Of a stretch of DNA of 64,000 nt, positions 19,782 to 55,734 are shown piece after piece. Made by a program: the position numbers and the translations under genes. The stretch is taken from positions 1 to 64,000 of the forward strand of contig CBDVDR010000002.1 of NCBI GenBank assembly GCA_965372795.1, given 5' to 3'. Position 1 is the stretch's first letter; each line of letters begins with the position of its first letter. The stretch is from an uncultured bacterium (GTDB lineage: Bacteria > Zixibacteria > MSB-5A5 > GN15 > FEB-12). The notes under the pieces were generated by a model. That model ran no database searches, had not been told where the DNA came from, and saw nothing but the letters and a program-made list of their open reading frames with translations.

Positions 19782-21239
19782 CTAACGTCCGAGAACTTTA
19801 TTCATCATTTCTACTGGGTTGATTCCAACCCTTGCAAACTTTTTTATCAGGAATGATGATTTCATTATCAACTTCATTGATTTAAAAAGATACTCTTTGC
19901 GGAAGGGGTCTTTGATTTTCATGAAATCAACCATTTTAGGCATATAGAAACGGCGATAGCAGTCAATGATTGCAATGTCAATATCTCTCAATGTCATATT
20001 GATCGGCTTGATTATCGGTTCAATCAGATTATAATTTCTGTAATCGTAATCTGCGATATGATCTTTAACTTCTTCATAAAAATCGGCATAAGGCCAGGGA
20101 GTGATAGCCAGGAAATGAGCAAAATCTGGATTAAACTCTTTTGCCATTAAAAAGGTTTTCTCAATCGACTCCTTCGTTTCATCCGGGAATCCAAGTACAA
20201 ACGATGTCTCTGAAATCATGTTATGTTCAGCAATTAAATTAATCGCCTGTCTCGATTCTGATACTGTGATTTCTTTATTCAATTTATCGAGCGTGGCTTG
20301 ATCAGTTGCTTCGGCTCCAACATAAATATGAATAATTCCCGATTTACGATATTTTGGTAAAATATCTTTATCACGGATAATATCTTCGACTCTGGTTTCA
20401 ATTAATATATGAATCCCGAGATCTGCCTGAATAATTCGATCAAGCAATTCTTCCCATCGGTCACGATCATAGGTCGGATATTCATCGGTAAATAAAAATA
20501 CATTGATGCCAAATTTTTTATTTAAAAAGATAATTTCATTAACGACTTTTTCAGGATTTCTCCCACGCCACATTTTATTCCAAAATTTCTGCTGGGAACA
20601 GAAAGTACAGCCATGATTACAGCCCCGCGAGGTCATTACAGAACCAAGCTTTGAATCGGCTATAACATAATATTTGTAAAGATCCCAATCCAAGATATCC
20701 CAATCGGTCTCAAGCGTATCAAGGTCTTCAACAAAGGGAAGTACCTTATTGACTTTTATTTTGCCATCTTCTTTAAATATCAAATTCGAGGTGTCATGTC
20801 GCTTTTCAACATCATCAAAGTTTTTCAAAAACTCATATAACGGCAATTCTCCTTCACTGCTAAGAATATAGTCAATACCCGATTTGTCATCATTGAATAT
20901 TTCTTTGAATGAAAAGGTCGGGTGGACACCCCCGATTATTGTGGTGCAATCAGGATTTACTTTTTTAGCTAATTGACAAAACTCCGAAGCATCCGGGTAA
21001 GTGGGCGTAATTGCGGTAGTTGCAAGAATATCATAATCGGTGGTTCTTAGTTTTTTTTCGATCTCTTTGAAATCATGGCGTAAAGTCATGGCATCGTAAA
21101 CCTCAGAATCCCATCCTGCTTTTTTTGCCTGAGCCGATAGATATACAAAACCAAGCGGAGGCCAACTGCCGGCAACTTCTACTACTCCGCAATGATAAGG
21201 TGGGGTGACAAATAATATCTTTTTTTTATTTTGAGCCAT
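19782..21239 (-). CDS. Cobalamin-binding (class B) radical SAM protein
   Basis: N-terminal B12-binding domain (PPLG...IIGGVHPT) and SRGCNHGCTFC CxxxCxxC motif. Confidence 0.9.
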   Translation of the reverse strand: MAQNKKKILFVTPPYHCGVVEVAGSWPPLGFVYLSAQAKKAGWDSEVYDAMTLRHDFKEIEKKLRTTDYDILATTAITPTYPDASEFCQLAKKVNPDCTTIIGGVHPTFSFKEIFNDDKSGIDYILSSEGELPLYEFLKNFDDVEKRHDTSNLIFKEDGKIKVNKVLPFVEDLDTLETDWDILDWDLYKYYVIADSKLGSVMTSRGCNHGCTFCSQQKFWNKMWRGRNPEKVVNEIIFLNKKFGINVFLFTDEYPTYDRDRWEELLDRIIQADLGIHILIETRVEDIIRDKDILPKYRKSGIIHIYVGAEATDQATLDKLNKEITVSESRQAINLIAEHNMISETSFVLGFPDETKESIEKTFLMAKEFNPDFAHFLAITPWPYADFYEEVKDHIADYDYRNYNLIEPIIKPINMTLRDIDIAIIDCYRRFYMPKMVDFMKIKDPFRKEYLFKSMKLIMKSSFLIKKFARVGINPVEMMNKVLGR

Positions 21240-21588
21240 ATTTTTTTAAGTACTTTCTATGCATCAGCAAACCAAAGATTGTGACCGACACTAAAAATAT
21301 ATGTTTTACAACCAGAGCCGCTACTTGTCCTTTGCCTACTGCTGGATTCCATTCAAAATCCATGAAAAAAAAGGCACGGGGGATACCGGCAATTATAATA
21401 TATGTAAACGCTCCATAAGTTACATACGATAACTTTTTAAATACTTCGGGAGTAACCTTATCTTTGACTTTTCCTGAATCAAGCAGCCTCCCCAAAAAGT
21501 ATATCACAGCAATATTTGATGCCAGCAACGCTGTTGCCAGATCGTGAAAATAATTGCTGATCATCAATGTGATTTTTAAAATATCCAT
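21226..21588 (-). CDS. Small polytopic membrane protein (CopD-like) with intramembrane His residues
   Basis: Three hydrophobic helices with NYFHDLA and VVKHIF. Start moved from 21639 to ATG 21588, just after the upstream stop. Confidence 0.65.
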   Translation of the reverse strand: MDILKITLMISNYFHDLATALLASNIAVIYFLGRLLDSGKVKDKVTPEVFKKLSYVTYGAFTYIIIAGIPRAFFFMDFEWNPAVGKGQVAALVVKHIFLVSVTIFGLLMHRKYLKKYGSK

Positions 21589-21592
21589 AATA

Positions 21593-22567
21593 TTAATAAT
21601 TGAAAATAAGTATGCTTTTCGCCGCCGGATCTGCAACAAAAATTTGTTTATTACGCCGATCTATTGCTATTCCGGATGGTCTGACAAAAGCACTGTCAAC
21701 TTTATAAGAAGATATATAATGTCCCAGTGTATTAAACATATGGATTGAAGCATTATTGCCATCTACGACATGAATACGTCCATGATATTGGATTCCACTC
21801 GGATCAAAAATGGATGTGTCCTGCATCGAGGGATCAATTATATTATCCATATCAATTGCCTGTGGTGAAAACTTTTGAGTTGTACTAATAGTATCAAACG
21901 GGTACATAAATTGACCATCGCAGCTGTAAGCCGATATTTTCCCACCAGATACATCACCGACAATCATACGGCCATCCTCTGATATAAACATTGCCGATGG
22001 AAACCCGATAGTTTGGTTGGAATCAGATGGAATATATAAAATTAACTCGCCTCGTTCGGTTAGGTTACCAACATCAACCATCGAAACGGCCATTATTTTT
22101 TTCAGACTTATATCACCAACATATAAAACTCCACCATAATATACCAAACTGAAAGGGGATAGTTGAGTTATTTGATCGGGAAGAGTTCCAAACGATGTTT
22201 GATAAACACCATTACGGTCATAGATTACAATCAGATGTTTGGCGTGGTCAATCACATAAATGGCAGAATCTGAAATTGTGAAAGAGGTCGGGTAAACAAG
22301 TGAAGGTTTATTTAAATGAATTGCCCCGACATGTTCCATCTTGTTATTATAAACATCAATCAACGGCATTTTGCTATAACTGACAAAAAGAGTATCCTGG
22401 AAAAATTGCAACCTTACCGGACTTAAAGTTTGCTCACCATAAGCAATTCGATGAGTTGCCACTAATTCAGGCACTCTTAAAAAAGGATCGACTTCGACTT
22501 GCTCTTTATCACAACCGATAGCAAAAAATAGAATAAGAATTATATTTATAATATGAAGTAATTTCAT
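21593..22567 (-). CDS. NHL-repeat beta-propeller lipoprotein
   Basis: Lipobox-like FAIGC; repeated P..I.....IYV.D....I..YD..G blades. Confidence 0.8.
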   Translation of the reverse strand: MKLLHIINIILILFFAIGCDKEQVEVDPFLRVPELVATHRIAYGEQTLSPVRLQFFQDTLFVSYSKMPLIDVYNNKMEHVGAIHLNKPSLVYPTSFTISDSAIYVIDHAKHLIVIYDRNGVYQTSFGTLPDQITQLSPFSLVYYGGVLYVGDISLKKIMAVSMVDVGNLTERGELILYIPSDSNQTIGFPSAMFISEDGRMIVGDVSGGKISAYSCDGQFMYPFDTISTTQKFSPQAIDMDNIIDPSMQDTSIFDPSGIQYHGRIHVVDGNNASIHMFNTLGHYISSYKVDSAFVRPSGIAIDRRNKQIFVADPAAKSILIFNY

Positions 22568-22570
22568 TAC

Positions 22571-23392
22571 TCAACCATAGACGTGAATAGTTTGATATAC
22601 ATAACCAACACCCCATAATGCGAAAATAACGGTCAAAGCTGCGATAATTGTCAACCAGGCGAAAAACTTGGGGGATACTTTAAAACCCATCCGGCTGTGA
22701 AGAACAAGCCCATACAGCAGCCAACTGATCAATGACCATAATTCGATAGGGTCCCAGGCCCAATACCTGCCCCAGGCGTTATGTGCCCAGATTGAACCCG
22801 ATACTATCATCACACCCCACAAAATCAAACCAAGGATGACAAAATTTAATATTGATTTAGGGAGAGATTTATATTCTGGGATTTTTTCTGCGGTTTTAAT
22901 ATGACTGTTCAGCCATTGCTCACCTAACAGATAGATTGCCGAAAATGATGATGCTATAACAAAAGTTGCTGCTCCGGCGGTTGCAAACGAAGCATGAATA
23001 AACAGCCAGACATTATCCAAAGCTGCCGACAGCGGCGAGGCTTCAACCGGCAAAGATGCCGACCAGCCTAAGAGTAGAAACGAAACTAAAGAAATTGGAA
23101 CAACGATAATTGATGATCTCGAGGATACTTTTTGAATGATTTGAAAGACTAATAGAATAAACCAAACCGACATTGTCATTGATTCAAACAAAGTTACAAA
23201 CGGTGGGTGACCGGATGCTGCCCAGCGAGTGATTCCAAATATTGTCAAAGTGATTAGTGCTGCCCGGCTTGAATAATTGGCATATTTTAATGCTGATGAT
23301 TTATTCAGAGTGATTGCAATAATACTCAGGAAAAAAGCAATTGCAGCAAATAGGGCGGTTGACCAGTAAAAAACAGATTCTAAAGAGCTCAT
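22571..23392 (-). CDS. ccsA: Cytochrome c synthase CcsA (System II)
   Basis: WWD motif WGRYWAWDPIE, conserved His (GHPP, FIHAS, C-terminal IHVYG), multiple TM helices. Confidence 0.93.
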   Translation of the reverse strand: MSSLESVFYWSTALFAAIAFFLSIIAITLNKSSALKYANYSSRAALITLTIFGITRWAASGHPPFVTLFESMTMSVWFILLVFQIIQKVSSRSSIIVVPISLVSFLLLGWSASLPVEASPLSAALDNVWLFIHASFATAGAATFVIASSFSAIYLLGEQWLNSHIKTAEKIPEYKSLPKSILNFVILGLILWGVMIVSGSIWAHNAWGRYWAWDPIELWSLISWLLYGLVLHSRMGFKVSPKFFAWLTIIAALTVIFALWGVGYVYQTIHVYG

Positions 23393-24465
23393 TCGTTGTT
23401 CTTAATTTCCCAAACTCTTGGCAAAAATCCTATTAACATTCCAATTAATGCCGACCAAAACCCAAAAAACACTAAATTCAAAAAAGGGCTGTCGACAACA
23501 CTTATATAACACCATCGCCTGAGACCAGTGAACGATAAAGTGTAATCATCGAACTTTACAGTCTCTTTTAATCCTAAGTCTCCAAGATACAACTGTTTTT
23601 GTTCATTTTCAACTGAAATATTTAATATGATGTTGTCTAAATCAGAACTTTCAATGTCCTCTATTTTAAGATTTACTCTCGCATTGAGGGTGGGAATCAA
23701 CACATAATCAGCATGAATCGTTTTACCTTTTGATTTTTGTATTGCCAGGCGGATATATGCTGAAAAAATTGGATTGTCATCCTTATCTTTTATCTCAATT
23801 TTAGGAGAATATCCCGTAAATAACCCGTAATGAAACTCAAGGTCCTGCCACCTGAAAGGATGATTAGTATAAACAAATTTTTCTATCGGATTTGAATAGC
23901 CTCTGGGTAAAATTGAAATTTGAGCCGCACTGGTTTGGGCATCCTGAACTTGGTATGATTCATCAATCTTTTCAAGCTTAAGATTAAACCGGTTTAATTC
24001 GGCTTCGTGCAAAGGACCCTTGTAGATTTTGTGATAATTATCTTCCTGATCTAATACCAACTGCCCCTCTGTTAAACTAAAAACACCTTCTGATTTATAA
24101 AGAAAATTCAGAATTATCCCAACCATAATTAATACCAATGACAGATGGAATATTATTGATCCAAGATGTCGGGCTTTTAATAGATTTTTTTCTACTTTAT
24201 ATACAGTGAGAAACCGTTTGATATTCCCAAAGGTTAGATTCAAGGCCAAGAGCCCCAGCAATACAAAAAATGGGGGAGCCGTATAAATCCTGTCCAGCCC
24301 TAATTTGTCTATGATAATATAATAGTCACCAAGCGACTCTTCCAGATTAATAATTTGATCTTGAGATATATCTTCCTGAGGAATAATTGCAGAAAATAAT
24401 ATATGAAGAATTAATAGAGATATTAAAATAAATGCTAAACGGGTGGATGCAAAATTAATTCTCAT
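23389..24465 (-). CDS. resB: Cytochrome c biogenesis protein ResB/CcsB
   Basis: N-terminal TMs, GSIIFHLS, periplasmic domain with TNHPFRW, C-terminal TM; ATGA-coupled to ccsA. Confidence 0.85.
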   Translation of the reverse strand: MRINFASTRLAFILISLLILHILFSAIIPQEDISQDQIINLEESLGDYYIIIDKLGLDRIYTAPPFFVLLGLLALNLTFGNIKRFLTVYKVEKNLLKARHLGSIIFHLSLVLIMVGIILNFLYKSEGVFSLTEGQLVLDQEDNYHKIYKGPLHEAELNRFNLKLEKIDESYQVQDAQTSAAQISILPRGYSNPIEKFVYTNHPFRWQDLEFHYGLFTGYSPKIEIKDKDDNPIFSAYIRLAIQKSKGKTIHADYVLIPTLNARVNLKIEDIESSDLDNIILNISVENEQKQLYLGDLGLKETVKFDDYTLSFTGLRRWCYISVVDSPFLNLVFFGFWSALIGMLIGFLPRVWEIKNNE

Positions 24466-24483: not shown

Positions 24484-27400
24484 TTAATAAGCTTTATTAC
24501 TATGAACTTTACAGGTCTCTGTCCAGCATCTATTAGCTCCGAAGTCCACTTGAGATAAAAATCCATTAACGAAGTTCTCAACCGGTTGTTGATTTCCGGT
24601 AGAGCCATCCTGCTCATTGTAAACCCATTTTCTATTCTGACCATGAATCCAAATTTTTATTGGTGGAGCTAATGAGGCAGTATTATCATAACCACCGGGC
24701 CAATCATCAGTTGGTAATCCAAGACCGGCTGTATTTGAATGATCCCACATATGGCATGAGAAACAACCGGGACCTTGCTTATGTTGACCTTGTGTACCCG
24801 GATGATCATCATAATCAGATGGAGCACCACTGCCTTCCCAATAAACAGAGGCCAAATGGCATACATCACACAAAGGTGTTCCGACAGTGCTGTTCGATAC
24901 TATCGTTGCTACTAACAAATGATCTGTATTAGAACCATGTGGACCTTCAGGATCAGTAGAAGTGTCAGAACGGTGACAATCAGAACAGTAATTTATCTTG
25001 GATGTTGCCCATGGTTCATTCATCGTTGTGCCATCACAGAATGGGTTATCACCGGCTCTTACAATTGCATGAGAAGAAGGATAATCAGGATTTATTTCTT
25101 CAGCCAGATTTCTTGAACCACCTGGAAGAGTTACATAATTCGAGTGACACTTCATACAAATCTGATATTCTTTCGTTGCCGGATCAACTTTTGTAAAACT
25201 TACCGGAGCTGCAAATACATTAGCATTATCTGTAGGAACCGGCACTGAAGGCCAGGTTGGTTCCACGCCCCAGACTCCCTTAAGTGCCCCCGATACCAAG
25301 TTAGACGAACCATCATGAGTACCTTCCTGAGCCGCATGAGGATTATGACAATCTTCACACTCAGCATGGCGGTTGCCATCACCAAGGTTTGCAGCCGTCT
25401 CATCAGCCGAATGTCGCCCACTATATGTGCCGGTTGGATGAGTATAAGTTCGACTGAAAGCAACACCAATATTGGTAGATGTACTTGTCATTGTCTGGAC
25501 TCCGTAAATATCACCCGATGAATGACAGGTCAGACAGAATTTTTCTTCAAGCGGATCCGCCGGCGAGGAAACAGTTGAGTCGCTCAATATTCTACGATAT
25601 GGGCTGTCATGTAACCCAAATTCATTAAATGATTTTGATAAATTATCATTGTGACATTTAACGCAGTTAGCATTAAACGAAGAACCATCACTAAATGTTG
25701 AAGACGGGGCATTATAGTTATGAGCACTTGAAGCATCAAAATCTGATTTTGGGACTATCATTGTTTCAGTCGTACCATCCGGTTGAGTATAACTTTTAGT
25801 TTGGGCAGATGTATGACATGACAAACAGATACCACCATCACCGGATGAGGTATAGTCAGAATTCAAAAACACTGAACCATCGCCTTGAGTTACCGAAGTA
25901 TTTGCAGAAATTCTGAGATTAGCAGCTCTTGTAGCACCAACTCCGGTGTTCACATCATCACGGAAAATATCATGATGAACGTGACACATCAAACAGGTTT
26001 TTGATGATAGGGTATAATCAGCATTGTCACTATTGATCTGGTGATGATATGTTGACGTACTTGAATTCATAGGGTTATAAATACTTGAGTGACATCCACA
26101 CCCGTCGCCACCGCTTGGCTCACCACCGGCCCCCGGGGAAAAACCATCAGCGTGAGTATGACAAGCTGCTCGACAATCTTCAACATCATGATTATGATCA
26201 CTAGGTTGTGTTCCATCATTTCTAAAATACTTAGTGGTTGTATGACATACTTCGCATATTTCAGTATAAACAGCGTTGGTTCTGTCTGCCATTGCCCCGT
26301 GAGTATCACTTCCGGCTGTCGGATCAGGAGAGTTAAACGGGTCGCCTTCTCCTAAAGTTTTAAATAGAACTGGCTGGTCACCATCATTTGGTGTTGCGAT
26401 TATTTCTCTAATAAGATAAATATTCGCCGATCCATGAGGTGTATGACAGGTAATACAGGTTTGGGTATTATGATTTGGAAGATTATGACAGGCTGAGTTC
26501 GGTCCGCCACAGTTCTCAGAATTGTTGGTGCGATGGAGTAAATTACCATCACCTAAAATTGCCGAACTTGTGACCGTTAATTCGTTACTGTTGGCAGTGT
26601 AGTCATCTGTTATTGTTCCACCTTTTTCATCATCAACAAAGAAATATAAATCATAGTCCCCGGTTGTTTGACCATCCGGTACTTTCCAAAGAACAGAGGC
26701 TTCATAAATACCGCCAGAGACATGGCGAACTCTAAGGTCTTGTTCTCCATGACGGGCATTGTTTACCAAAGTATATTCTGTCGAACCGGCATCTCGAACT
26801 TTCATTGTAATCAAAAATCCACCTTTACCTGGCAAATCTATATCGGTAAAGGTACCTTTGATCATTGTAAAATCTGAACCGATGCGGTTGATAGAATTTG
26901 GAATAGCTTCTGTATTATCAGCTGTCAATGTTGGACTGTTATTTGAGATAGCATCGTATATTTCTAATTCATCCCAGTTATTTTGATAACCGTCAAATGA
27001 AGTGTCGGTACCTTCAATAACATGGAAATATAAATCATACGGTCCAAGAGTTTGACCATCAGGAGGTTCCCAGTTAATCGCAGCTGTATAAACACCACCG
27101 CCCTGATCAACAATTGTTACTCCGCCCTGACCATGTCCCAAATTATCTGCCAGAACTATTTCTGTGTCAGTTGAGTCTTTAATTTTAAAAGTAACACTGA
27201 AAACAGAAACGGCAGGTGAATCGCCATCGGAAAAATTAGCTGAGATAGTTACCGGATTCGTTCCAACTCTTTCAACTGCAATTGGTGAAGAAAAAGTGCC
27301 ATCAGAGGGTACAACCGGGGGTAAATTATCACCCGCAGTTGTGATTGTAAGTTCATCAGAATTGTTTGCAAATATATCACCAACACTGTCTATACCGTCA

Positions 27401-36006: not shown

Positions 36007-36043
36007 TTGTGAAAAAGATAACAAGGTGGACATGAAAAGTCAA
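36007..36043 (-). promoter_or_regulatory. Sigma70 promoter with overlapping Rex-like operator
   Basis: Minus strand TTGACT-N17-TATCTT with TGn extension. Box TTGTGAAAAAGATAACAA (36007-36024) covers the -10. Confidence 0.65.
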
Positions 36044-38219: not shown

Positions 38220-38235
38220 GAAATCTACATATTTC

Positions 38236-38267: not shown

Positions 38268-38439
38268 ATAACTAAAATAACCTCTTTTTTAACCCCCCAA
38301 AAAAATACCCTTATAAACCAAGTCTTTATGTAATAAGTATAGGATACATCCTACACTCCTTGGATTATATCTATTCGGCAAAATCAGATTGAAAATTGGG
38401 TATATGTTGTGGCACAATGAATTACACAAATCGCAGCAA

Positions 38440-38455
38440 TGGCACATCCTTTGCT
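38440..38455 (+). promoter_or_regulatory. Sigma54 (-24/-12) promoter for cytochrome 38544..39137
   Basis: TGGCACATCCTTTGCT matches TGGCAC-N5-TTGCW exactly, about 90 nt upstream of the ATG. Confidence 0.75.
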
Positions 38456-38543
38456 TTTTTGAATACTGAAACATAAAATATTTCGGATTAAATTGTAGAA
38501 TTTATGCGAAATCAACGTAGAATAGATAGCTTGTGAGGGCTGC

Positions 38544-47057: not shown

Positions 47058-48278
47058 TTAGTTAGCAGTATGACAACCACTACAAACGGCATCATTTGTA
47101 TTGTCAGCTCTCAAGAAAGGACGGACTGATCCGCCAAGTCTATGAACAGAGTGACATGTTTCACAAACGATGAAAGCATTGGTAGTTGCATAGTCTTTTG
47201 TTGCATCATAAGTTGCATCATTGATAGCACTTGCTACTGGATATGTAGCACCCAGAGTAGTTGGCATAGTGACATTAGCACTTGCATTCACCTGATCAAC
47301 TGGGTGAGAGTTACCACCAACTTCAGGAGCTGTTGTTGCAGCTGCTGTGTGACAAGTCTGACAGCCATCTGATTCTTCGTTAGCATAAACTTGCAAGAAG
47401 TTTACCGAAGGACCGGCAGCGGCATTAAAGCCTGTTGTATGGACAAAGTGACAGTCATTACAACCAGTCATAGCATCACCATGAGAACCTGTTCCACCAG
47501 TCATGTGTCTACCCGGTGCTGCACCAGCTTGGTTCAAGAAAGTACCATCTGGATAAGATGACGCACTTATACCTGTTGTATAAGTAGTTTGGGATTCATG
47601 ACAATCAACACAAGCACCACCCCAGGCATTTGCTGCATTATTCTGAACTGGAAGTAACCATTTACCGTCAGTTCCTTCAACACCACCGGTTTGTGCTACA
47701 ATAGTACCGGTACCGTGAACTACAGCGATTGAGTGACAATCACCACAGCCGATGTTTGCAGTTTGTGGATGGTTTTCAGCCTGAAGATAGTTGTTAGTAA
47801 GACTAACACCAGGGAAAGTACCATCATGACAATCAGCACATTCACCGGTACTTGCACCAAGAGTGGTCAAGAACTTACCATCAGTGTTATTGTTCTGAGA
47901 ATGAACATCATGACAAGATGCGTCATCTCCGGAACATGTTGCAAATGAAGTAGTATTTGCATGCAACTGGTTAGCACCTGTAAATGGCAATGAACCTGTT
48001 GTTACTTGGGCTACAATAGTACCATCATGACAGGATTGACACAGACCGGCAACGCCACCGGCTCCACCAACACTCATTGACCAAAGTTTGTCAGCGCCAG
48101 AAGTCGCTTTATGTGGAACATGGCAGGATGTACACAGATCAAGTGTACCAACAAAACTACCTGGCATTGTCATGCCAGTTCCGGCCAAGTCATGGGCGCC
48201 GCCATCAACGGCAGCATTTACACCTAAAGGCAGTGCTAACAAAGCAACACCGATAGCGATTGTAAATAGTTTTTTCAT
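47058..48278 (-). CDS. Extended OmcE-like multiheme cytochrome c (9 CxxCH + 1 CX6CH)
   Basis: Signal peptide; AHDL...LCTSCHVPH...LW...LCQSCHDG N-terminus; HPV...CETCHSVH...PFLR...CSGCH C-terminus; rich in Gly, Ala and Thr. Confidence 0.88.
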   Translation of the reverse strand: MKKLFTIAIGVALLALPLGVNAAVDGGAHDLAGTGMTMPGSFVGTLDLCTSCHVPHKATSGADKLWSMSVGGAGGVAGLCQSCHDGTIVAQVTTGSLPFTGANQLHANTTSFATCSGDDASCHDVHSQNNNTDGKFLTTLGASTGECADCHDGTFPGVSLTNNYLQAENHPQTANIGCGDCHSIAVVHGTGTIVAQTGGVEGTDGKWLLPVQNNAANAWGGACVDCHESQTTYTTGISASSYPDGTFLNQAGAAPGRHMTGGTGSHGDAMTGCNDCHFVHTTGFNAAAGPSVNFLQVYANEESDGCQTCHTAAATTAPEVGGNSHPVDQVNASANVTMPTTLGATYPVASAINDATYDATKDYATTNAFIVCETCHSVHRLGGSVRPFLRADNTNDAVCSGCHTAN

Positions 48279-48351: not shown

Positions 48352-49908
48352 CTATTCCGATTTAGTAATTACATATTTAAAGCCCATTACTTTATTACTT
48401 CTTTCACTCGTGACATAAATGATATTGTCTTTAACAATAATGCCTCGAGGTCCTGCAAGCTGCTGGCTCTCATCAGTAAAACTCTTAGTTGAGATAGCTA
48501 TCTTTGGTTCACCTTCCAGGTTGAAGGCTTGAATTGTTCCAGCCATAGCGTCAGTACACCAGTACAAACCGTCTGAAAAATTTACTCCGACCGCACGACC
48601 AAAGGTACCTACTGATGTGCCCATTCCGCCAAAATGTAATTGTTCTTCACCTTCAAAATTTGAAATAATAATTTGACCCATGATAGGATTTGTATGAACA
48701 AAAGTTTTATCATCAATTATCTGGACTCCATTTGGATAATGAGCAAGGAATGTTTCACCCATTTTATATTCTTTTTGAATTTGACCTTCAGAATCAATAA
48801 TTAGAATTCGATGGTTGCCAACATCTGAACATAAGATCCTTCCATCATCAAATACATCAATGCCGTTTGCTCTTAGCCCTTCCTTTTCACCTTCTGGTAC
48901 TTTGATCCTTTTAATGAATTTTCCTTCAGATGAGAATATTTGTATGTCTCTTGTAGAAACATCACTCACATAAACCTGATCTTTACTGTCTATTCCTATT
49001 GCAAATGGAATTAAAAATGCTCCGTTTGGTGGATCTTCTCGATCATCAGATTCCATTCCTGATCCAAAGACAAACTTTACTTGACCGGCATTATCAGTGC
49101 AAACGATTCTATGGTTCCCTTGATCAACAATATAAAAATCACCTTTAGAATTTACGGCAATCCCGGTAGGATTCATTAATGGCTTACCTTTTGCCTCAGT
49201 TACTTCAAAAACCAACTCAAGTTTTATTGAATCAAGATGAATCGTTGATTCTGCAGCTTCAAGTGCCACCCGTTCTTCTTCTGTAAGACCGAATTTTATT
49301 ACGGTCTCTTCTGAAGGATCACTTTCCTCAAATTCTTCATTTAAAGCACTTATGATATAATAATAGGATGTGCCACTAACAAGATTGTCAGCATCGGTAT
49401 AAGATACTCTCGAAACATTGCCGATTAATTCAAACCCTGAACCAGATGTTGTAGAACGACTAATATTATAAGCAATAGCTCCTTTTACTTTATCCCATAA
49501 AATCATTATTGCTGTTTCTCGATCATTTATTCTGGCACCTACTCCTTTAGGAGCAGAAAAAGCATCAATCTCTGCCGGCATTTTTACATCTTTTGTGTTT
49601 CCGGCTAATTCATTGCCATCAACAACCGCAGCAATTTTATAAGTAAAAACTACACCGGCTTGAAGCTTAGTATCAAAATAATTTGTTTTATCAGTAGTGC
49701 CTAATTTTGCAAATTCACTGTCAGCAGTTTTACGATATACAATGTACTCAGAAGCGTCAGCTACTTTCATCCATTTTAGTCCTACTTTTCCTTTGACAAA
49801 AAATGCTCCTATCAGCTTAGGACCTTCCTGGGCCTGAACTGATGAAAATGCAAATGCAGCTATGAAAATTAGAACTACTACTCTCAAAATAGGGGAGAGT
49901 CTCGTCAT
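48352..49908 (-). CDS. Two-FN3-domain + NHL beta-propeller secreted protein
   Basis: FN3 motifs (LKW...Y.VYR...YFD; ILWDKV...YNISRS...YYYIISA) then NHL blades. Start moved from 50040 to ATG 49908, which has an AAGGA SD and begins a signal peptide. Confidence 0.88.
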   Translation of the reverse strand: MTRLSPILRVVVLIFIAAFAFSSVQAQEGPKLIGAFFVKGKVGLKWMKVADASEYIVYRKTADSEFAKLGTTDKTNYFDTKLQAGVVFTYKIAAVVDGNELAGNTKDVKMPAEIDAFSAPKGVGARINDRETAIMILWDKVKGAIAYNISRSTTSGSGFELIGNVSRVSYTDADNLVSGTSYYYIISALNEEFEESDPSEETVIKFGLTEEERVALEAAESTIHLDSIKLELVFEVTEAKGKPLMNPTGIAVNSKGDFYIVDQGNHRIVCTDNAGQVKFVFGSGMESDDREDPPNGAFLIPFAIGIDSKDQVYVSDVSTRDIQIFSSEGKFIKRIKVPEGEKEGLRANGIDVFDDGRILCSDVGNHRILIIDSEGQIQKEYKMGETFLAHYPNGVQIIDDKTFVHTNPIMGQIIISNFEGEEQLHFGGMGTSVGTFGRAVGVNFSDGLYWCTDAMAGTIQAFNLEGEPKIAISTKSFTDESQQLAGPRGIIVKDNIIYVTSERSNKVMGFKYVITKSE

Positions 49909-49981
49909 GTTAAAATTCCTTTTTTTTGTAGTTTCATCTCGATCCTCAGTCATTTGAGAATCAAAAGTATTACTCCCGGTT

Positions 49982-49999
49982 TTGTTATAAAATTCACAA
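49982..49999. promoter_or_regulatory. Rex-like operator
   Basis: TTGTTATAAAATTCACAA, an 18-bp imperfect palindrome. Confidence 0.65.
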
Positions 50000-50123
50000 A
50001 GTGAAGTTCTCTTAATGTTTTTTAATTTAACGCGGTTCATTTCATTAAGCTTTACTTTTTGTTATTTCCATCGATCTAAATTGAAGAGTAAGAAGAGTAT
50101 CTATTAATAAAAGGAAGGCTGGC

Positions 50124-50141
50124 TTGTTATTGAATTCACAA
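50124..50141. promoter_or_regulatory. Rex-like operator
   Basis: TTGTTATTGAATTCACAA, an 18-bp imperfect palindrome. Confidence 0.65.
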
Positions 50142-50231: not shown

Positions 50232-50267
50232 TTGTGATAAATATAACAATATCGAGGGTTTTGTCAA
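50232..50267 (-). promoter_or_regulatory. Sigma70 promoter with overlapping Rex-like operator
   Basis: Minus strand TTGACA-N16-TATATT with TGn extension. Box TTGTGATAAATATAACAA (50232-50249) covers the -10. Confidence 0.68.
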
Positions 50268-50502: not shown

Positions 50503-51771
50503 CTATTTAAGTAAAAATTCAGAATTGCTAACATGTGCAAAATGACAATCAATACATTTTGACTTTTCCAATTTTTCGGCTGGATGAGCTTCTGATGGCT
50601 CAATATCATGGCAATTCATACAAAGTTCACTATCTTGAAGCTCTTCTTTGGTCATTTCACCATCGTGACAGGACTCACAATCACCCTCTTCAAATGGCGG
50701 GTGATAATTGGTCTTGATTATAGCTGAATTCTCAGAACCATGAGGATCATGGCAATTTGAGCATTTTGAAGGAGTCAATGAAGCATGCTTCTCAAGAAAA
50801 TCATCATCTTCAATATCATGGCAACCCGTGCATAAATCTTCCTCAGGGTCGATTAAAACACCTGCATGAGGGTCATGACAGGCGGTACAATCATCATCTA
50901 ATACAGCAGCATGGGCAAATTCAAGTTCGAGTTTTTCTTCAATCTCGGAATGACATCCAAAACATAAATCCAGTTGAGTATCTTCTACTAAATGATTTCC
51001 ACCCTTTTTATAGTGAGGAGTATGGCAAACAAGACAGTCCTCATCTTCAAGAATTGTATGGACTTTTTCTGACTCCATTTTTTCTTTTATATCAGTATGA
51101 CAACTAAGGCAAAGATCAGTTGGTTCATCTTTTAAAATTGAACCATAATCGGAAGTATGCCCGGTGTGGCATTGTTCACAAGAATTCAAATCTTTTCCGG
51201 AGTGCATTTCGTTTGGTTGGAAATCAATGAAATCGGCATGACAATCAAGACAAATATACCCCGTAGGTAATAGTAACATCCCCGGGAATAATGACCCATG
51301 AGGGTTATGACAAGTCAGACAATTCTTTTTTGCGTATGGTTCATGAATATTTTTATCATCAGGGTCGGGCTCATCATGACATTCAAAACATAACTCAGGA
51401 ACTTTTTCCTTCAGAAAAAATTTATTCTTGGATGAATGAGGACTATGACAATTTGAACAGCCAATCTCATCCAAGATTGGATAGTGAATCTGATCTTCTT
51501 CTAACTCTATGATAGTTTCATGACAATTTGAGCAAAAATCTTTTGATTCACCTATAAATTCTATCTTATTTCGAAATTCATGAAATTGATGGCAGGCATA
51601 ACAATCATTATCTTTAAATGGCTTATGATTAATCTTGCCCTTTAATCTCTTGGCAATATTTTTATGACAATCAGTACAATTTTTCTCTTTATAACTTGTA
51701 ATAGCGGTAACCGGCAGCAAAGCAGCAACAACTATGTAAATCAAAAAGTATTTCAAAAAAATTCGTAACAT
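50503..51771 (-). CDS. 17-heme acidic cytochrome c (doubled-CxxCH repeat type)
   Basis: Signal peptide; 17 CxxCH in repeated CxxCHxPH...LCxxCH units; Asp/Glu rich. Confidence 0.93.
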   Translation of the reverse strand: MLRIFLKYFLIYIVVAALLPVTAITSYKEKNCTDCHKNIAKRLKGKINHKPFKDNDCYACHQFHEFRNKIEFIGESKDFCSNCHETIIELEEDQIHYPILDEIGCSNCHSPHSSKNKFFLKEKVPELCFECHDEPDPDDKNIHEPYAKKNCLTCHNPHGSLFPGMLLLPTGYICLDCHADFIDFQPNEMHSGKDLNSCEQCHTGHTSDYGSILKDEPTDLCLSCHTDIKEKMESEKVHTILEDEDCLVCHTPHYKKGGNHLVEDTQLDLCFGCHSEIEEKLELEFAHAAVLDDDCTACHDPHAGVLIDPEEDLCTGCHDIEDDDFLEKHASLTPSKCSNCHDPHGSENSAIIKTNYHPPFEEGDCESCHDGEMTKEELQDSELCMNCHDIEPSEAHPAEKLEKSKCIDCHFAHVSNSEFLLK

Positions 51772-51791
51772 TTGTGCTCTATTTTTTAATC

Positions 51792-52643
51792 CTAGTCTAT
51801 CTTATATATATTTTCGTCAATTTCTTGATTTATTTTAACAGACTTAATTGTATATTCTGACATTTTTAATCCCATTGATACATTCATCTTTGAAGAAGGC
51901 AATATATAACCATCATATTCCTGAAATGCAGAAAAGTAATTAATGAAAACTGTCCTGTATTCATCTTGAATTATCATTCCTTCAATTTTTTTTATATAAT
52001 TATCTTCCGGATCAATACCGAGAACCATTATCAATGAATCTTCTTTTTTTAAATAAATATAATTAAGAGAGTCATCCAATCTTGTTCCAAATTTGATTTC
52101 AGGAAATGTTTTATAATTTGCACCTGCTGGCATTGATAAGACAAGATAGCTGTACAATTCAGCTTTATATCCACCGGTTTCAAGTTGAGCAGAATTATTA
52201 TTTACAGTTTTAAATGCCTTCTCGCTATTTAAAGTGTAAGACACCGTTAGAGTGTCATTAATTGTCCTGATCTTCTTATATTTTAAATCACTATCATATA
52301 ATAGATTTACTATGCCGGTGTTATCATTTAATAACGAGGCCGAGATAAATTCAATATCCATATTTTTTAATTTGTTCAAGTGCTCTAAACCGCCATACTT
52401 ATTTATACAATTATCAAATACTTGATTCCCTTCAGGAGAATCTTTCAAATTAGTTGCTTCATCCCAAAGCGAATCATAATTTAATTTCTCAATCACTTCA
52501 CCTGTATACCAATGACCATGATCTACTACTTTTTGTTCTTTTCCTTTGCTGGCAGCATCGTCATAAGCTAAACCTGAGCAAAACCCCAATAACGAAATTG
52601 CTATTGTAACAGTTATGATTTTTAACAAGATATTTTTTGTCAT
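51792..52643 (-). CDS. Hypothetical exported protein, possibly LolA-like fold
   Basis: Signal peptide; KYGGLE.L.KLK N-terminal motif; C-terminal FSAFQEYDGYILP...VKINQEIDENIY pattern. Confidence 0.55.
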   Translation of the reverse strand: MTKNILLKIITVTIAISLLGFCSGLAYDDAASKGKEQKVVDHGHWYTGEVIEKLNYDSLWDEATNLKDSPEGNQVFDNCINKYGGLEHLNKLKNMDIEFISASLLNDNTGIVNLLYDSDLKYKKIRTINDTLTVSYTLNSEKAFKTVNNNSAQLETGGYKAELYSYLVLSMPAGANYKTFPEIKFGTRLDDSLNYIYLKKEDSLIMVLGIDPEDNYIKKIEGMIIQDEYRTVFINYFSAFQEYDGYILPSSKMNVSMGLKMSEYTIKSVKINQEIDENIYKID

Positions 52644-52724: not shown

Positions 52725-53843
52725 TTAAGGGTATAAAATTTCAAGAGCTGTTTTAAATGAATTGGCTGCACTGGAAGTGTCAGCAGACTTAAGATATGTT
52801 TTACCAATGTAGAAATGAATTAATGGATCTTTCAAATTCAACTCTAAAGCTTTATTTAAAGAATCCAAAGCTTCCTGATATTTGTTTTGTTCTGCAAGGC
52901 ATAAACCTAAATCCAAAAAGGCAGGGGTAAAGGCATAATCCAATTCAAGCGCTTTACCAAGCTTCACCAACGATTCCTCGACCTGATTATCCCTTAAAAG
53001 TGCCTGTCCGTAACCGGCCCAGGCTGCTACAAAGGTAGTGTCAAGTTCTGTTGCTTTTTTAAATGCTTCAATAGCTAATGGAACTTTGTCAAGACTTAGG
53101 TAAATTTCACCTCTTAAACTATATGGAACTGCAAAATTTGTATCGGCTTCTATAGAAAGCTCAAGATTTGATAAGGCTCGTTCGTAGCTTCTTTTGCGAT
53201 TGAGGTTGACGGCCAGACCATAATATCTCAAGGAGCGTTTTTTAGGACTGTATCCTTTTTTGACAACTGTTGTCACACTGGCTGATTTTAATCCAAGAAG
53301 GACCTCTATTGAATCAATGATTAAATCTTTAGTTGTTAGCGAATATCCGGCTGGTCCATACCGCAGGATTCCGCTTGAATCAAGAATTGCCGTCGAAGGG
53401 ACCGCAATAACACCAAATTCATAAAATATATCCAAACCATCATCAATTATAACCGGAAAGGGGAGGTCTTTGGCTGCAATCAAATCTAAGACTAATTGTC
53501 GTTGTTTACCGACCAATTCCTCGCTATCTACATTAATAGCAACTATCTTGACCGGCTTTTCTCCTAAATCATTATAAATTTCTTTTAAGGCATCTAATTC
53601 TTCCAGTGACCTTTTTGACCAGGAGGACCAGAATACTACGATTAGAAGATTATTATCTGCGGTATAAGCAGAAGTAGATATCTTTTCGCCTGTTTTAATA
53701 TCCAAACCGGTAACAGTTGGTGCTTTCATACCCTCATTTAGATACTTAAAAGCCGCGGTTGCCGATGGTACTAACAAAATCCCCGGTAAAACCAGAAGTA
53801 ATGTGACAAATACTTTTTTAAAGGTACTAAAATTCCAGATCAT
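52725..53843 (-). CDS. TlpA/ResA-like thioredoxin-fold protein (CxxC replaced by SKRS) fused to TPR repeats
   Basis: LIVVFWSSWSKRSLEEL, VAINVD, FGVIAVPSTAILDSSG, then TPR helices. Confidence 0.85.
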   Translation of the reverse strand: MIWNFSTFKKVFVTLLLVLPGILLVPSATAAFKYLNEGMKAPTVTGLDIKTGEKISTSAYTADNNLLIVVFWSSWSKRSLEELDALKEIYNDLGEKPVKIVAINVDSEELVGKQRQLVLDLIAAKDLPFPVIIDDGLDIFYEFGVIAVPSTAILDSSGILRYGPAGYSLTTKDLIIDSIEVLLGLKSASVTTVVKKGYSPKKRSLRYYGLAVNLNRKRSYERALSNLELSIEADTNFAVPYSLRGEIYLSLDKVPLAIEAFKKATELDTTFVAAWAGYGQALLRDNQVEESLVKLGKALELDYAFTPAFLDLGLCLAEQNKYQEALDSLNKALELNLKDPLIHFYIGKTYLKSADTSSAANSFKTALEILYP

Positions 53844-54376
53844 TTTTTCCCTTTCAAAAGTGTAAATTGGAGAACTTTCTGGAAAATTTCCACAGCCTGG
53901 GCTGTATCATTCTGTTCAAGCAGAGTTACACCTTTTAAATATAATGCCTCTCCTTGGCGGGGCTTAATAGCCAGAATATTATCTATTAATTCTGAGGCTC
54001 CGGTAACATTATTTTGGGCTAAATAAATTCTTGCCAGTGATATCTTCAATTTTGAAGATAGAGGCGCTTTTGAGATCCCATCTGTTAAGATTAATGTTGC
54101 TTGAGTTGTATCTCCGGATTGAACCAGAATTGAGGCTTTATAATAATGAGCATCAGGGTTTTTGGCATCAATGGCTAAAACAGAATCAAGCAGAGGAAGA
54201 GCCTCGGAAGCCTTATTATCATTAATAAGAGCTTTGGACTCTTTTAAAAAATGACGACTTAGTTTTACCCGTTTACGTTTTTCCTGAGCTGAGTCCGATA
54301 TTGTTTGTGAATAAGCATTGATCGGAACTCCGGCAATTATTAAAATACTCAACCAGACTAATAACGCTTTTTTCAT
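53840..54376 (-). CDS. TPR-repeat exported protein
   Basis: Signal peptide; repeated A...L..IDAKNPDAHYYKA and PRQGEALYLKG TPR motifs. Confidence 0.85.
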   Translation of the reverse strand: MKKALLVWLSILIIAGVPINAYSQTISDSAQEKRKRVKLSRHFLKESKALINDNKASEALPLLDSVLAIDAKNPDAHYYKASILVQSGDTTQATLILTDGISKAPLSSKLKISLARIYLAQNNVTGASELIDNILAIKPRQGEALYLKGVTLLEQNDTAQAVEIFQKVLQFTLLKGKK

Positions 54377-55632
54377 TTCCTATGATATTCCTTTGGCGAA
54401 TGACAGCCTACTACACATTTACCGCCATCTGAAAATTTAGTAAATGTGACCGGGAGCTCCCAGTTCATTTTCCCAAATGGCACAGATTTACGAATATGCT
54501 TTTCCTGGCTCGAAGCGTGAACCTGATGACAGGCTTTACAACTTCTACCCTTAACTTCCTTATTGACATGTAGGAAATGCAAATTTATTTCTCCATCCCT
54601 AAAGTCCGTTAATGTAGTAGTTTTTTGGTCAAGTGCAATATCTTTATTGTGACATTCAAAACAACTGGCATAATTACTGGTTGAATATGAATTATAAAAC
54701 TCTTCTGGGAAATATTTTCTCAATATACGATGATTTTGACTTCCATGTGGATCATGACAGGCATTACAGTCACCATCTTTTATCGGACCATGTTTATGCG
54801 TTTGCTCTGAAACATATTCACCTAATTCGCTGTGACAAGTAAAACAAAGCTCTACTTGAGGTTTGTGGAACATACGGGGGTTATCTGAAGCATGAACATT
54901 ATGACATTGACTGCATTTTCCTTCAGATACCGGAGGATGTGGAAATTCTGCAGTAAGACTTGAAGCTAAATCTGTATGACAATCAAGACAAAGATCAGGT
55001 TCACTGGCTGGTAATAAGAATTTGTTTGTATTCGAATGGGGATTATGACAATTAGTGCAATCTTCTTCTACAGGCTTATGAATATGTCGTTTATCGGGGA
55101 TGTCTGCTTGTTCTTTGTGACAAATATAACAAATTTGCTCAGGCGGTTCTATCAACTGATTGACATTGGCGGAAGAATGAGGGTTATGGCAAACATTACA
55201 ATCACCAACTCCGACAGGACCATGGACAAATTCCATCGTGAAATCATCCTGTTTGTGACATTGGTAACACAGTTCTGAGGCATTTCCCTTTAATGAAAAT
55301 CGATTGTCAGATTGATGTGGATCATGACAGCCGACACAGTCACCATCTGCAACTGGAGTATGTAAGTGATCCTCAAGCATCATTTCACGATTATCCTCAT
55401 GACAATTGAAGCAAAGTTCTTCTCTTTCAGCTGTCAAGGTGAATTTATGTTTTTTACCTTCTACCGGGGCATGACAAATATTACAAATACCAGCTCCAAC
55501 CGGACCATGTACAAAGGCTTTGGTGCCCATATCCTCATGGCATTTAGACTTTACGCACCCTGCATCTGATTGTGCAAATGAGCAAAGCGGTATTAAGAAA
55601 AATAAGGTCAGGGTTGCAATTAATAATTTCAC
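54373..55632 (-). CDS. ~15-heme cytochrome c (13 CxxCH + CX4CH + CX3CH)
   Basis: Repeated HGPV..G.CxxCHxPHxS...LCxxCH units. Start moved from 55671 to GTG 55632 (GGAGG-N6-GTG). Confidence 0.93.
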   Translation of the reverse strand: MKLLIATLTLFFLIPLCSFAQSDAGCVKSKCHEDMGTKAFVHGPVGAGICNICHAPVEGKKHKFTLTAEREELCFNCHEDNREMMLEDHLHTPVADGDCVGCHDPHQSDNRFSLKGNASELCYQCHKQDDFTMEFVHGPVGVGDCNVCHNPHSSANVNQLIEPPEQICYICHKEQADIPDKRHIHKPVEEDCTNCHNPHSNTNKFLLPASEPDLCLDCHTDLASSLTAEFPHPPVSEGKCSQCHNVHASDNPRMFHKPQVELCFTCHSELGEYVSEQTHKHGPIKDGDCNACHDPHGSQNHRILRKYFPEEFYNSYSTSNYASCFECHNKDIALDQKTTTLTDFRDGEINLHFLHVNKEVKGRSCKACHQVHASSQEKHIRKSVPFGKMNWELPVTFTKFSDGGKCVVGCHSPKEYHRK

Positions 55633-55698
55633 TTTATGCCTCCAATAAAAACTATGTATAATCTTATTCAATAGTCAAAAATAGGATACTCTATGACT

Positions 55699-55734
55699 AT
55701 GTGAAAATAATAACAAATGCCTCGACTTTGTCAA
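55699..55734 (-). promoter_or_regulatory. Sigma70 promoter with overlapping Rex-like operator
   Basis: Minus strand TTGACA-N16-TATTAT with TGn extension. Box ATGTGAAAATAATAACAA (55699-55716) covers the -10. Confidence 0.65.

Follow-up and report, generated by a model that had tools for sequence, protein, structure and literature searches.

Contig CBDVDR010000002.1 of assembly GCA_965372795.1, which derives from an uncultured bacterium of the GTDB phylum Zixibacteria, carries a cluster of multihaem cytochrome genes at positions 19782-55734 of its first 64,000 nucleotides (the stretch analysed here, referred to as the window), which we describe as a candidate locus for a cytochrome nanowire of the OmcE type. 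The cluster comprises 22 minus-strand open reading frames (ORFs) of at least 100 aa arranged in three runs, here called the 15-haem, middle and third operons, and three further ORFs in a 2.8-kb insert on the plus strand. Ten ORFs spanning 24484-55671 contain at least four CxxCH haem-binding motifs (11, 5, 5, 7, 4, 4, 10, 9, 17 and 13, respectively), giving a total of 85 and reproducing exactly the hand count of an earlier model-made note on the letters of the window (the original prediction). Its figure of about ten atypical motifs was too high: a regular-expression search locates five CxxxCH and one Cx4CH, six in all, plus one Cx4CKxH tail. Also confirmed from that inventory are the 10-, ~15- and 17-haem cytochromes (45865-46971, 54373-55671 and 50503-51771, respectively), the TPR proteins (two by Pfam), five NHL propellers (Pfam NHL E values of 1.2e-4, 5e-8, 2.4e-22, 4.2e-21 and 1.4e-14, the weak one being 21593-22567) and a CcsA/ResB pair (PF01578, 110 bits; PF05140, 84 bits).

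The core of the locus is a six-gene cassette in the middle operon, all on the minus strand. It consists of a 9-haem cytochrome (47058-48278), a 10-haem cytochrome (45865-46971, assigned from its CxxCH count and Pfam), an NHL β-propeller that is a probable lipoprotein (44819-45895; LLLCSCS, lipobox recognized by eye; Pfam NHL 4.2e-21), the 222-aa tetrahaem subunit E1 (44140-44808), a Cys-free 713-aa protein modelled as an outer-membrane β-barrel (41989-44130) and a second NHL β-propeller (40980-41999; Pfam NHL 2.4e-22). The 10-haem protein scores 100.3 bits with the NCBIfam DmsE decahaem model TIGR03508, below the cut-off of 192.2. The smallest omcE cluster reported in the available part of Petersen et al. 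(2026; PMC13712944) contains two cytochromes, two β-propeller lipoproteins, OmcE and a large β-barrel, and the order 9-haem, 10-haem, NHL, E1, barrel, NHL supplies this published minimal set, with E1 as the positional counterpart of omcE. The operon opens with a 562-aa NHL propeller carrying an fn3 domain (48352-50040; Pfam NHL 1.4e-14, fn3 1.3e-5) and closes with a second OmcE-type tetrahaem protein, E2 (40328-40990; 220 aa), and an octahaem cytochrome (39255-40319; 354 aa, with seven CxxCH and a C-terminal CYLTCH). Related loci were collected by a scan of genome contigs, which found 89, of which 80 were kept (L009-L088) with a median of 15 kb of DNA per locus; the 9-haem gene is present in L009-L014.

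E1 aligns over its full length with both solved OmcE structures, that of D. soudanensis (9YUQ; E = 1.7e-27, residues 2-222 against 2-218) and that of G. sulfurreducens (7TFS; E = 4.1e-21), and E2 likewise matches 7TFS (E = 2e-23) and 9YUQ (E = 7e-19) along its whole length. The OmcE filament structure was reportedly described by Wang and colleagues in 2022. E1 combines four CxxCH motifs with four distal histidines (His29, His56, His154 and His198), as needed for four bis-His haems. Within a family alignment of 129 sequences (56 free subunits, six OmcE proteins from fetched Desulfobacterota regions, ten split heads and 57 N-domains of larger cytochromes; see below), the eight cysteines, four motif histidines and four distal histidines are conserved at 96-100%, with the exception of the last haem motif in the N-domains, which were cut by hand from 11-haem proteins and retain it at 82%. 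Both E1 and E2 possess the full set of eight Cys and eight His of the OmcE family. The relation to Geobacter OmcE proposed in the original prediction is borne out by this full-length homology to two solved filaments together with the minimal gene set. Its claim of three OmcE-like proteins holds for E1 and E2 and fails for the third, a 5-haem cytochrome of the third operon (33619-34317; 232 aa, by CxxCH count), which we rejected as an OmcE homologue. This protein matches 7TFS at 3.2e-7 as a single sequence and at 3.4e-6 as a profile, and 9YUQ at 3.9e-4 as a profile, but the match comprises only one doubled-CXXCH module of 37-41 columns (39-41 residues by phmmer and profile, 37 columns by hhalign and short segments by BLAST). 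Its AlphaFold2 model, from a 41-row alignment, has a mean predicted local distance difference test score (pLDDT) of 42.6 and is too poor for fold comparison. The 5-haem protein has 162 clusters in the protein collection, and its alignment shows a mean column identity of 71% and 13 histidines invariant in 41 sequences; eight of these lie beyond the five motif histidines, three more than are required for bis-His ligation of five haems, and the spare residues could serve inter-subunit or metal ligation.

The 713-aa protein encoded immediately after E1 has no Pfam or NCBIfam family. A HMMER search of 1.84 billion representatives returned 70 relatives at E ≤ 1e-3, most of which are 680-740 aa long and 17-25% identical. 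The AlphaFold2 model calculated from an alignment of 33 relatives (mean pLDDT of 88; predicted TM-score of 0.68) is almost entirely β, with ~28 long strands, as counted from the DSSP string, and a β-rich insert at residues 200-295. The top PDB matches in Foldseek are the TonB-dependent receptors PirA and ChuA, the ushers PapC and FimD, and MtrB (6r2q_B), the last of which has the highest TM-score to the model (TMq of 0.42) among the 50 PDB matches listed. All of these TM-scores are low, as expected because strand numbers differ between barrels; the MtrB barrel has 26. The protein thus models as a large outer-membrane barrel, as the original prediction had proposed.

The available text of Petersen et al. 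(2026; PMC13712944) places OmcE homologues with a nearby porin in the Thermodesulfobacteriota, Pseudomonadota, Aquificota, Campylobacterota and Nitrospirota, and Zixibacteria is not among the five phyla named there. For comparison, 401 genomes of the phylum of one related locus (L051) were sampled, 44 of which contained a match to E1 at 1e-10, and eight Desulfobacterota regions were fetched. Four of the eight (L093, L095, L096 and L100) are canonical, with the order cytochrome-cytochrome-NHL-OmcE-NHL-barrel (c9-c8), and the OmcE of L093 matches 7TFS at 3.4e-37. The omcE cluster of the Desulfuromonadia shares with the window a tetrahaem subunit with the same eight Cys and eight His and full-length homology, two multihaem cytochromes, two propellers, a large Cys-poor barrel and resB/ccsB genes nearby. 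In L093, L095 and L096 the ResB-CcsA pair is directly upstream of the cassette (the L100 DNA begins too late), whereas the window pair is located in the third operon, ~15 kb from E1. None of the four canonical loci has head and octahaem genes past the barrel, whereas the middle operon of the window closes with both. The window also differs from the omcE cluster in its third operon, with a propeller sorted by the type IX secretion system (T9SS), the 5-haem protein, a giant cytochrome, an extra ResB/CcsB and a BchE-like gene, and in the absence, within the window, of a glycosylation block beside the cluster. Compared by hhalign with five Desulfobacterota barrels, the window barrel family gave a probability of 72% (E = 3.3e-5) over 199 columns, out of register, and BLAST gave no match between the barrel and the canonical barrels at 1e-4. 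A further Desulfobacterota locus, L097 (G045:C1:152000-171999), recalls the window, encoding ResB, CcsA, a 9-haem cytochrome and an NHL protein, then an OmcE-like protein that is free-standing, a propeller-like protein, a 15-haem protein of 942 aa (with 41% identity to the haem domain of the giant) and a second OmcE-like protein, and ending with a 644-aa Cys-free protein, an NHL protein and a fused 11-haem OmcE-headed protein.

The nature of E2 and of the octahaem cytochrome, whose gene starts 8 nt past the end of E2, is indicated by larger proteins at related loci. Among the ORFs of 88 loci are 66 cytochromes of 450-720 aa with 9-13 CxxCH, and 59 of these consist of an E2-like N-domain (residues ~1-220, 30-42% identity) followed by a C-domain that aligns with residues ~33-352 of the octahaem protein at 25-35% identity. 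For 53 of the 59, E2 is a better match to the N-domain than E1 is. A fused OmcE-headed protein of this kind is encoded in 57 of the 80 related loci, mostly by the last gene past the barrel and propeller. Fused 10/11-haem cytochromes of other phyla resemble the window pair in sequence (35-42% for the N-domain against E2 and ~25-35% for the C-domain against the octahaem protein), in their placement past the barrel and propeller and in a C-terminal G.C.L.CH (CxxxCH) tail, carried by 71 of 93 octahaem-protein homologues. They differ in being encoded by one gene; the window, five of the relatives (L009, L010, L011, L013 and L014) and three loci of Acidobacteriota (L027, L029 and L055) instead have a gene pair whose products carry separate signal peptides. 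A reading of the octahaem protein as a second OmcE copy was rejected, as BLAST against E1 gave only short CxxCH-module matches (E = 0.006).

Two maximum-likelihood trees were calculated in quick IQ-TREE runs, with support from the Shimodaira-Hasegawa-like approximate likelihood-ratio test (SH-aLRT) only and midpoint rooting; three long-branch rows of the first tree were removed for the second. Both trees place E2 and the other split heads within the fused N-domain clade, with an SH-aLRT of 88 for 68 rows in the first tree and of 79 for 67 rows, including all 57 N-domains, in the second. E1 and the six fetched Desulfobacterota OmcE proteins, four of which come from canonical cassettes, are outside this clade in both trees, with E1 among the free-standing subunits. 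7TFS and 9YUQ were not included in the trees, in which the six fetched OmcE proteins serve as stand-ins; two 10-residue motifs taken from the 7TFS and 9YUQ alignments have no exact match in the eight fetched Desulfobacterota regions, so either the strains of the solved proteins are missing among the 401 sampled genomes or their motifs deviate. Judged by sequence, E2 is the split-off head, and the octahaem protein the split-off body, of an OmcE-headed 11-haem protein, and the two together are a candidate filament base.

A complex of E2 (residues 27-220) and E1 (residues 24-222) was modelled with four haems for the eight sites and with purpose-made alignments. The modelled contact has a score of 0.74, compared with 0.00 for the best of three controls; of 157 solved complexes, 116 attain the mark for a contact, as do two of 215 mismatched pairs, counts that hold only roughly here because the calibration used neither ligands nor such alignments. 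At least 94% of the contacts agree between runs, with a partner pLDDT of 82 or more. In the interface, E2 contributes its N-terminal, haem-1 side (residues 29-31, 38, 40, 51-55 and 60-69) and E1 its C-terminal, haem-4 side (residues 146-154, 194 and 210-222), so that the two meet in a head-to-tail manner. In this arrangement the E2 C-terminus would stay free to point toward the octahaem protein, matching the domain order of the fused cytochromes.

The three operons are preceded by a common promoter-operator arrangement, all three copies of which are on the minus strand: TTGAC(A/T), a spacer of 16-17 nt and a TG-extended -10 element overlapped by TGTTA-N6-TCACA. The copy of the 15-haem operon (55700-55734) has TTGACA, a 16-nt spacer and TG-extended TATTAT with the overlapping palindrome. 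That of the middle operon (50233-50267) is followed downstream by a second, inverted copy of the palindrome at 50125-50140, and that of the third operon (36008-36043) was read by a sigma-70 scan as TTGACT, 17 nt and TATCTT, with TG before the -10 element. The pattern TTGAC-N13/14-TTGTTAT-N4/5-TCACA has three matches on both strands of the 3,349,883-base genome (36043, 50267 and 55734), one per operon, a uniqueness that is partly by construction, these same sites having served to define the pattern. The same layout is found upstream of the orthologous operons in L013 and L014, and both leader sites of the middle operon are kept (at 4746 and 4923 in L013 and at 4745 and 4921 in L014). The shared operator at the three minus-strand promoters in the original prediction is upheld by these matches and by this conservation. 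The CRP-type operator consensus is TGTGA-N6-TCACA, from which the TGTTA-N6-TCACA sites are one half-site off, and the genome encodes one HTH_Crp_2 protein (C8:117260). The promoter-linked palindrome resembles a CRP-type site and is a candidate operator. An apparent genome-wide enrichment of a relaxed palindrome was discounted, as TGT..TGTCAC represents CxxCH codons inside cytochrome genes. The word TGT[TG]A-N6-T[CA]ACA also occurs within cytochrome genes of the window (39545, 55131 and 55269) and of L013 (8265 and 8463); it recurs there because TGT-NNN-NNN-TGT-CAC encodes CxxCH, a trap in haem-rich genomes.

The third operon is dominated by a stalked giant cytochrome of 3038 residues (24484-33600; assigned from Pfam and motif positions), which consists of a signal peptide, an N-terminal domain, five Big_9-like repeats of ~97 aa, ~16 repeats of ~128 aa and a haem domain. 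Its 12 haem motifs (11 CxxCH and CRAACH) are all contained in residues 2382-2950, behind ~2300 residues of immunoglobulin (Ig)-like repeats, which agrees with the unusual stalked giant of the original prediction. The haem domain has no match among PDB sequences at E ≤ 0.01. Residues ~2684-3029 share 45% and 39% identity with the C-domains of OmcE-headed 10-haem proteins in L022 and L060, respectively. The C-terminus of the giant, ...CWTETCKVHSNKAY, includes the Cys-pair tail CWTETCKVH; the corresponding tails are CWTETSNCAH in L022 (titled Ignavibacteriaceae) and CWSESGAANCAKTH in L060 (titled Neomarinimicrobiota). Across the fetched loci and the host genome, the tail pattern CW[ST]E[ST]..C..H occurs in these three proteins only.

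All three tail proteins adjoin a module of ResB, CcsA, an NHL protein, a small membrane protein and a B12-binding radical S-adenosylmethionine (SAM) enzyme. In the window these are ResB (23389-24465; PF05140, E = 1.4e-23, 83.9 bits against a gathering threshold of 24.6), the haem-handling subunit CcsB/CcsA (22571-23392; PF01578, E = 1.4e-31, 110.2 bits against 29.9; 142.2 with the equivalog TIGR03144, under the cut-off of 187.6), the weak NHL/six-bladed propeller, a probable lipoprotein (21593-22567; DUF5128 3.8e-6, NHL 1.2e-4), a 137-aa hydrophobic protein (21226-21639) and the radical SAM enzyme itself (19782-21239; Pfam B12-binding and Radical_SAM), all on the minus strand. The 137-aa protein has no Pfam or NCBIfam match, and homologues lie between the NHL and radical SAM genes in L022 and L060. 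The nearest family of the radical SAM enzyme is BchE, which it matches at 1.2e-120 (TIGR02026, 403.8 bits), below the cut-off of 481.35; on this score it is a BchE relative and not BchE itself. The radical SAM gene is linked to CcsA in L022, L053, L060, L064 and L076, and each of these five loci encodes at least one octahaem-like cytochrome with a tail lacking CxxxCH, L053 additionally encoding one that has it; the converse is hard to judge because loci were cut at a median of 15 kb. The genome contains at least three CcsA-like loci, the others being on contigs C4 and C9, so the local ResB/CcsB pair is an extra copy. At C9:68420-70576 (genome G000), three adjoining CcsA-like matches were observed, one of which has an in-frame TGA; a split gene, a frameshift or codon recoding are possible explanations. 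Wolinella possesses dedicated System II haem lyases, NrfI for CxxCK and CcsA1 for CX15CH. The window resembles these cases in having an extra CcsA-type synthase beside a cytochrome with a non-standard Cys-pair site, and differs in the site itself, CWTETCKVH, in the addition of a BchE-like B12 radical SAM enzyme, a propeller and a small membrane protein, and in that haem at the tail is putative.

The first gene of the third operon encodes an NHL propeller with a T9SS C-terminal sorting domain of type A (34326-35861, minus strand; Pfam Por_Secre_tail 7.8e-8; TIGR04183, 47.1 bits with a cut-off of 23), which is predicted to be surface-exposed. The genome has a T9SS translocon gene (SprA_N, 73.6 bits, at C19); a search for GldM in the genome gave no match, as was also the case for a Bacteroides control.

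The 15-haem operon, also on the minus strand, begins with the 432-aa 15-haem cytochrome (54373-55671), which has a signal peptide, 13 CxxCH, the CxxxCH motif CVVGCH and the Cx4CH motif CVKSKCH (Pfam Paired_CXXCH_1 7.7e-77) and is likely to be a periplasmic haem chain. It is followed by a 178-aa TPR protein (53840-54376; Pfam TPR_19 3.7e-17), a fusion of a ResA-like thioredoxin fold with TPRs (52725-53843; Pfam AhpC-TSA 5.2e-14 and TPR_CcmH_CycH 6.5e-8; NCBIfam ResA 2.7e-13, under the cut-off), a secreted 283-aa protein (51792-52643) that has no Pfam or NCBIfam match and the 422-aa 17-haem cytochrome (50503-51771; Pfam Paired_CXXCH_1 8.8e-71). The ResA-like fusion, which likely reduces the CxxCH thiols of apocytochromes, has orthologues in L013 and L014, and the 283-aa protein is 38-39% identical to proteins in the same place there; in both loci these two genes and a 16- or 17-haem gene lie upstream, as in the window. 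The plus-strand insert between the middle and third operons (36382-39137) encodes a PEGA-domain protein by Pfam (36382-37404), a 188-aa protein (37653-38219) and a cytochrome with seven motifs, five CxxCH and two CxxxCH (38544-39137). It is missing at this position in L009, L010, L011, L013 and L014, so that the middle and third operons are contiguous there.

The host genome has an estimated completeness of 98.65% and contamination of 0.18%. Its GTDB family also contains a metagenome-assembled genome (MAG) titled Candidatus Zixiibacteriota, in line with the non-Geobacter lineage proposed earlier, and the nearest Atlas clusters of its RpoB are mostly from Bacteroidota, in keeping with the FCB group. 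Six loci are 60-64% identical to E1: four from Candidatus Zixiibacteriota MAGs, one from an uncultured bacterium and one titled Candidatus Kerfeldbacteria (L010; JACRFO010000098.1). The last has the full Zixibacteria-type locus, with small cytochromes 63-73% identical, and its label probably stems from mis-binning in the public database entry. The gene order from the NHL-fn3 gene (or the start of the locus) to the 5-haem gene is the same in L009, L010, L011, L013 and L014, and a homologue of the giant is next after the 5-haem gene in four of these five (L009, L010, L011 and L013; not L014). Identity to the window in the five relatives is highest for the 5-haem protein (71-77%), compared with 61-64% for E1, 61-66% for E2 and 19-23% for the barrel, which does not exceed 25% across all loci. 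In total, the genome has 36 ORFs with at least two CxxCH, amounting to 344 motifs. Those outside the window include a 17-haem protein with a NapC/NirT-like N-domain (contig C12) and membrane-anchored candidates, which make an inner-membrane entry point for electrons, encoded away from the locus, plausible. We found no paper joining Zixibacteria and OmcE in a word-start search (the spelling Zixiibacteriota was not covered), and none of the papers listed for Zixibacteria and multiheme proteins is about nanowires by its title.

We lean slightly towards reading the locus as the Zixibacteria version of the omcE nanowire system, with three operons under one promoter-operator and the filament mechanism included. 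On this reading, electrons from quinol dehydrogenases encoded elsewhere would enter the long periplasmic haem chains (the 15-, 17-, 9- and 10-haem cytochromes) and cross the outer membrane via the 713-aa barrel, which would hold the octahaem protein joined to E2 in the way that MtrB holds MtrA. E1 would stack head-to-tail on E2 and then on itself to give an extracellular haem filament, with the NHL propellers acting as putative assembly factors. The flow may be outward, to Fe(III), humics or partner cells, or inward from Fe(II). The third operon would add surface parts, namely the T9SS propeller, the 5-haem protein and the stalked 12-haem giant, whose C-terminal Cys-pair site would be matured by the adjoining extra ResB/CcsB and the BchE-like radical SAM enzyme. 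A more specific proposal, which in its entirety we hold only tentatively and consider doubtful, is that E2 and the octahaem protein are the missing base of the wire, with the body in the barrel and the head as the first polymerization interface, and that, jointly, the radical SAM enzyme and ResB/CcsB install or modify a haem at the new CW[ST]E[ST]..C..H site.

A number of points weigh against the nanowire reading. The filament, the localization of the proteins, their expression and their activity are predictions from genes and models, and what the propellers, the giant, the 5-haem protein and the radical SAM enzyme do is inferred from context alone. The window has no inner-membrane quinol module by Pfam, as the original prediction had noted, and the terms 'complete' and 'self-contained' used there are too strong; candidates are on other contigs. 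The order OmcE-barrel-NHL differs from the OmcE-NHL-barrel of the canonical loci, to whose barrels the window barrel is not demonstrably homologous by sequence comparison. E1 and E2 are about equally like the solved OmcE proteins, so the choice of the polymerizing one rests on position and on the trees, the support of which is moderate and the rooting at the midpoint. Since E2 and the octahaem protein have separate signal peptides, their association is assumed. The modelled E2-E1 contact contains only four haems for eight sites and may reflect likeness to, or memory of, 7TFS rather than binding, perhaps because OmcE homopolymers had already been solved. The co-occurrence counts for the tail and the radical SAM gene are limited by the median of 15 kb of DNA per locus. 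In its available part, Petersen et al. (2026; PMC13712944) also warn that OmcE-like tetrahaem genes are widespread and that perhaps only some of the products polymerize.

These points give some room, well short of an even chance, to a porin-cytochrome conduit without a wire, in which the barrel, the octahaem protein and the OmcE-like proteins would form a fixed outer-membrane complex of the Mtr/Pcc type, E1 and E2 would be monomeric or capping surface cytochromes, and the 5-haem protein and the giant would contact the substrate. The OmcE fold occurs mostly as a domain of a non-repeating 11-haem protein (the 57 of 80 loci mentioned above), so that the fold alone is no proof of a polymer; the top TM-score of the barrel model among the 50 matches listed is to MtrB, and the ~2300-residue Ig-like stalk with its 12-haem domain could reach out without a filament. 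The number of solved OmcE filaments is only two in the available text of Petersen et al. (2026; PMC13712944). A conduit sits less well with the full complement of haem ligands of the filament formers in E1, with the omcE position of E1 in the cassette, with the head-to-tail placement of E1 on E2 in the model (subject to the memory caveat) and with the free subunit genes beside a fused head in many loci, which are expected of a repeat unit and a base. The MtrCAB/Pcc system (6R2Q) is like the window in that a large outer-membrane barrel adjoins a cytochrome of the decahaem class, and unlike it in that family membership is lacking here (the DmsE/MtrA model is under its cut-off and the barrel has no family), leaving a likeness of fold only.

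It is improbable, to our mind, that the same hardware works inward, drawing electrons from a partner cell, from Fe(II) or from a mineral that behaves like a cathode, although the genes of the window are compatible with either direction and hypABFDE directly past the locus point to a flexible electron economy. The cytochrome complement of the genome (36 ORFs, 344 motifs) speaks against this direction, being similar in richness to that of known metal reducers. In the available text of Castelle et al. (2013; PMC3903129), the Zixibacteria genome RBG-1, the first of the phylum, was judged to be without extracellular cytochromes, and Fe(II) oxidation was considered likelier than Fe(III) reduction for its Mtr-like cluster. 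That preference favours uptake, but it was founded on the absence of such cytochromes from RBG-1, and they are found here; moreover, the bacteria in which OmcE systems have been characterized reduce Fe(III) and electrodes (Petersen et al., 2026; PMC13712944, in the part available). Least probable by far is a periplasmic redox-enzyme or detoxification system for sulfur species, nitrogen species or soluble metals, with the barrel as a solute porin. Multihaem cytochromes with NHL partners also exist outside extracellular electron transfer (EET), and for the 5-haem protein there is weak NrfB/NrfH-like similarity (E = 2.7e-7 and 6.2e-7, both far under the cut-offs), but no ORF of the window scores above any Pfam or NCBIfam cut-off for the catalytic cytochrome families NrfA, HAO, MccA or OTR. 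The T9SS sorting domain on one propeller, the cell-surface-type repeat stalk of the giant and the homology and synteny with the omcE cluster all argue for the cell surface instead.

The nanowire reading thus concerns a kind of system that is already in print and that differs here in lineage, in the split end-piece, in the surface module of the giant, in the link between the tail and maturation genes and in the single operator for three operons; its value is in these variant features and not in a new mechanism. EET clusters of uncultured peat Acidobacteriota and Verrucomicrobiota (bioRxiv 10.64898/2026.05.27.727921) likewise combine a porin with multihaem cytochromes in uncultured phyla, and a figure legend of that preprint lists OmcE-like, MtrC-like and MtrA-like cytochromes of 8-13 haems; they differ in phylum, and the words 'NHL', 'propeller' and 'nanowire' do not appear in the part of its text available. 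The present locus would extend the range of the OmcE system to the Zixibacteria, a widespread phylum of sediments and aquifers. The naturally split end-piece makes the base or anchor hypothesis approachable with two small proteins, and a base formed by E2 and the octahaem protein would, if true, answer the question of anchoring and initiation left by Petersen et al. (2026; PMC13712944, as available) for the Desulfuromonadia. The locus also ties an unusual cytochrome tail to a dedicated pair of haem-attachment proteins and to a radical SAM enzyme of the porphyrin type, and the conserved operator offers a handle on regulation.

A scan of the whole window with Rfam found no RNA families. Outside the cytochrome locus, the genes hypA, hypB, hypF, hypD and hypE adjoin it downstream on the same strand (13880-19723, minus), and the window shows no structural gene for a hydrogenase. 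Positions 1-12046 (minus) encode an open-ended ORF of at least 1101 aa without a Pfam family, an ABC ATPase, an 857-aa protein and seven successive small ORFs (152-290 aa) without a Pfam match, followed at 12233-13870 (plus) by a second T9SS-sorted protein (Por_Secre_tail 3e-6, FlgD_ig 1.8e-10). At the other end, a pterin block (56103-60366), divergent from the adjoining operon, encodes GTP cyclohydrolase I, a short-chain dehydrogenase/reductase and two further proteins, one of 403 aa that contains three stretches of 6-pyruvoyl-tetrahydropterin synthase and one of 599 aa in which an aromatic amino-acid hydroxylase domain of the biopterin-dependent type is present.

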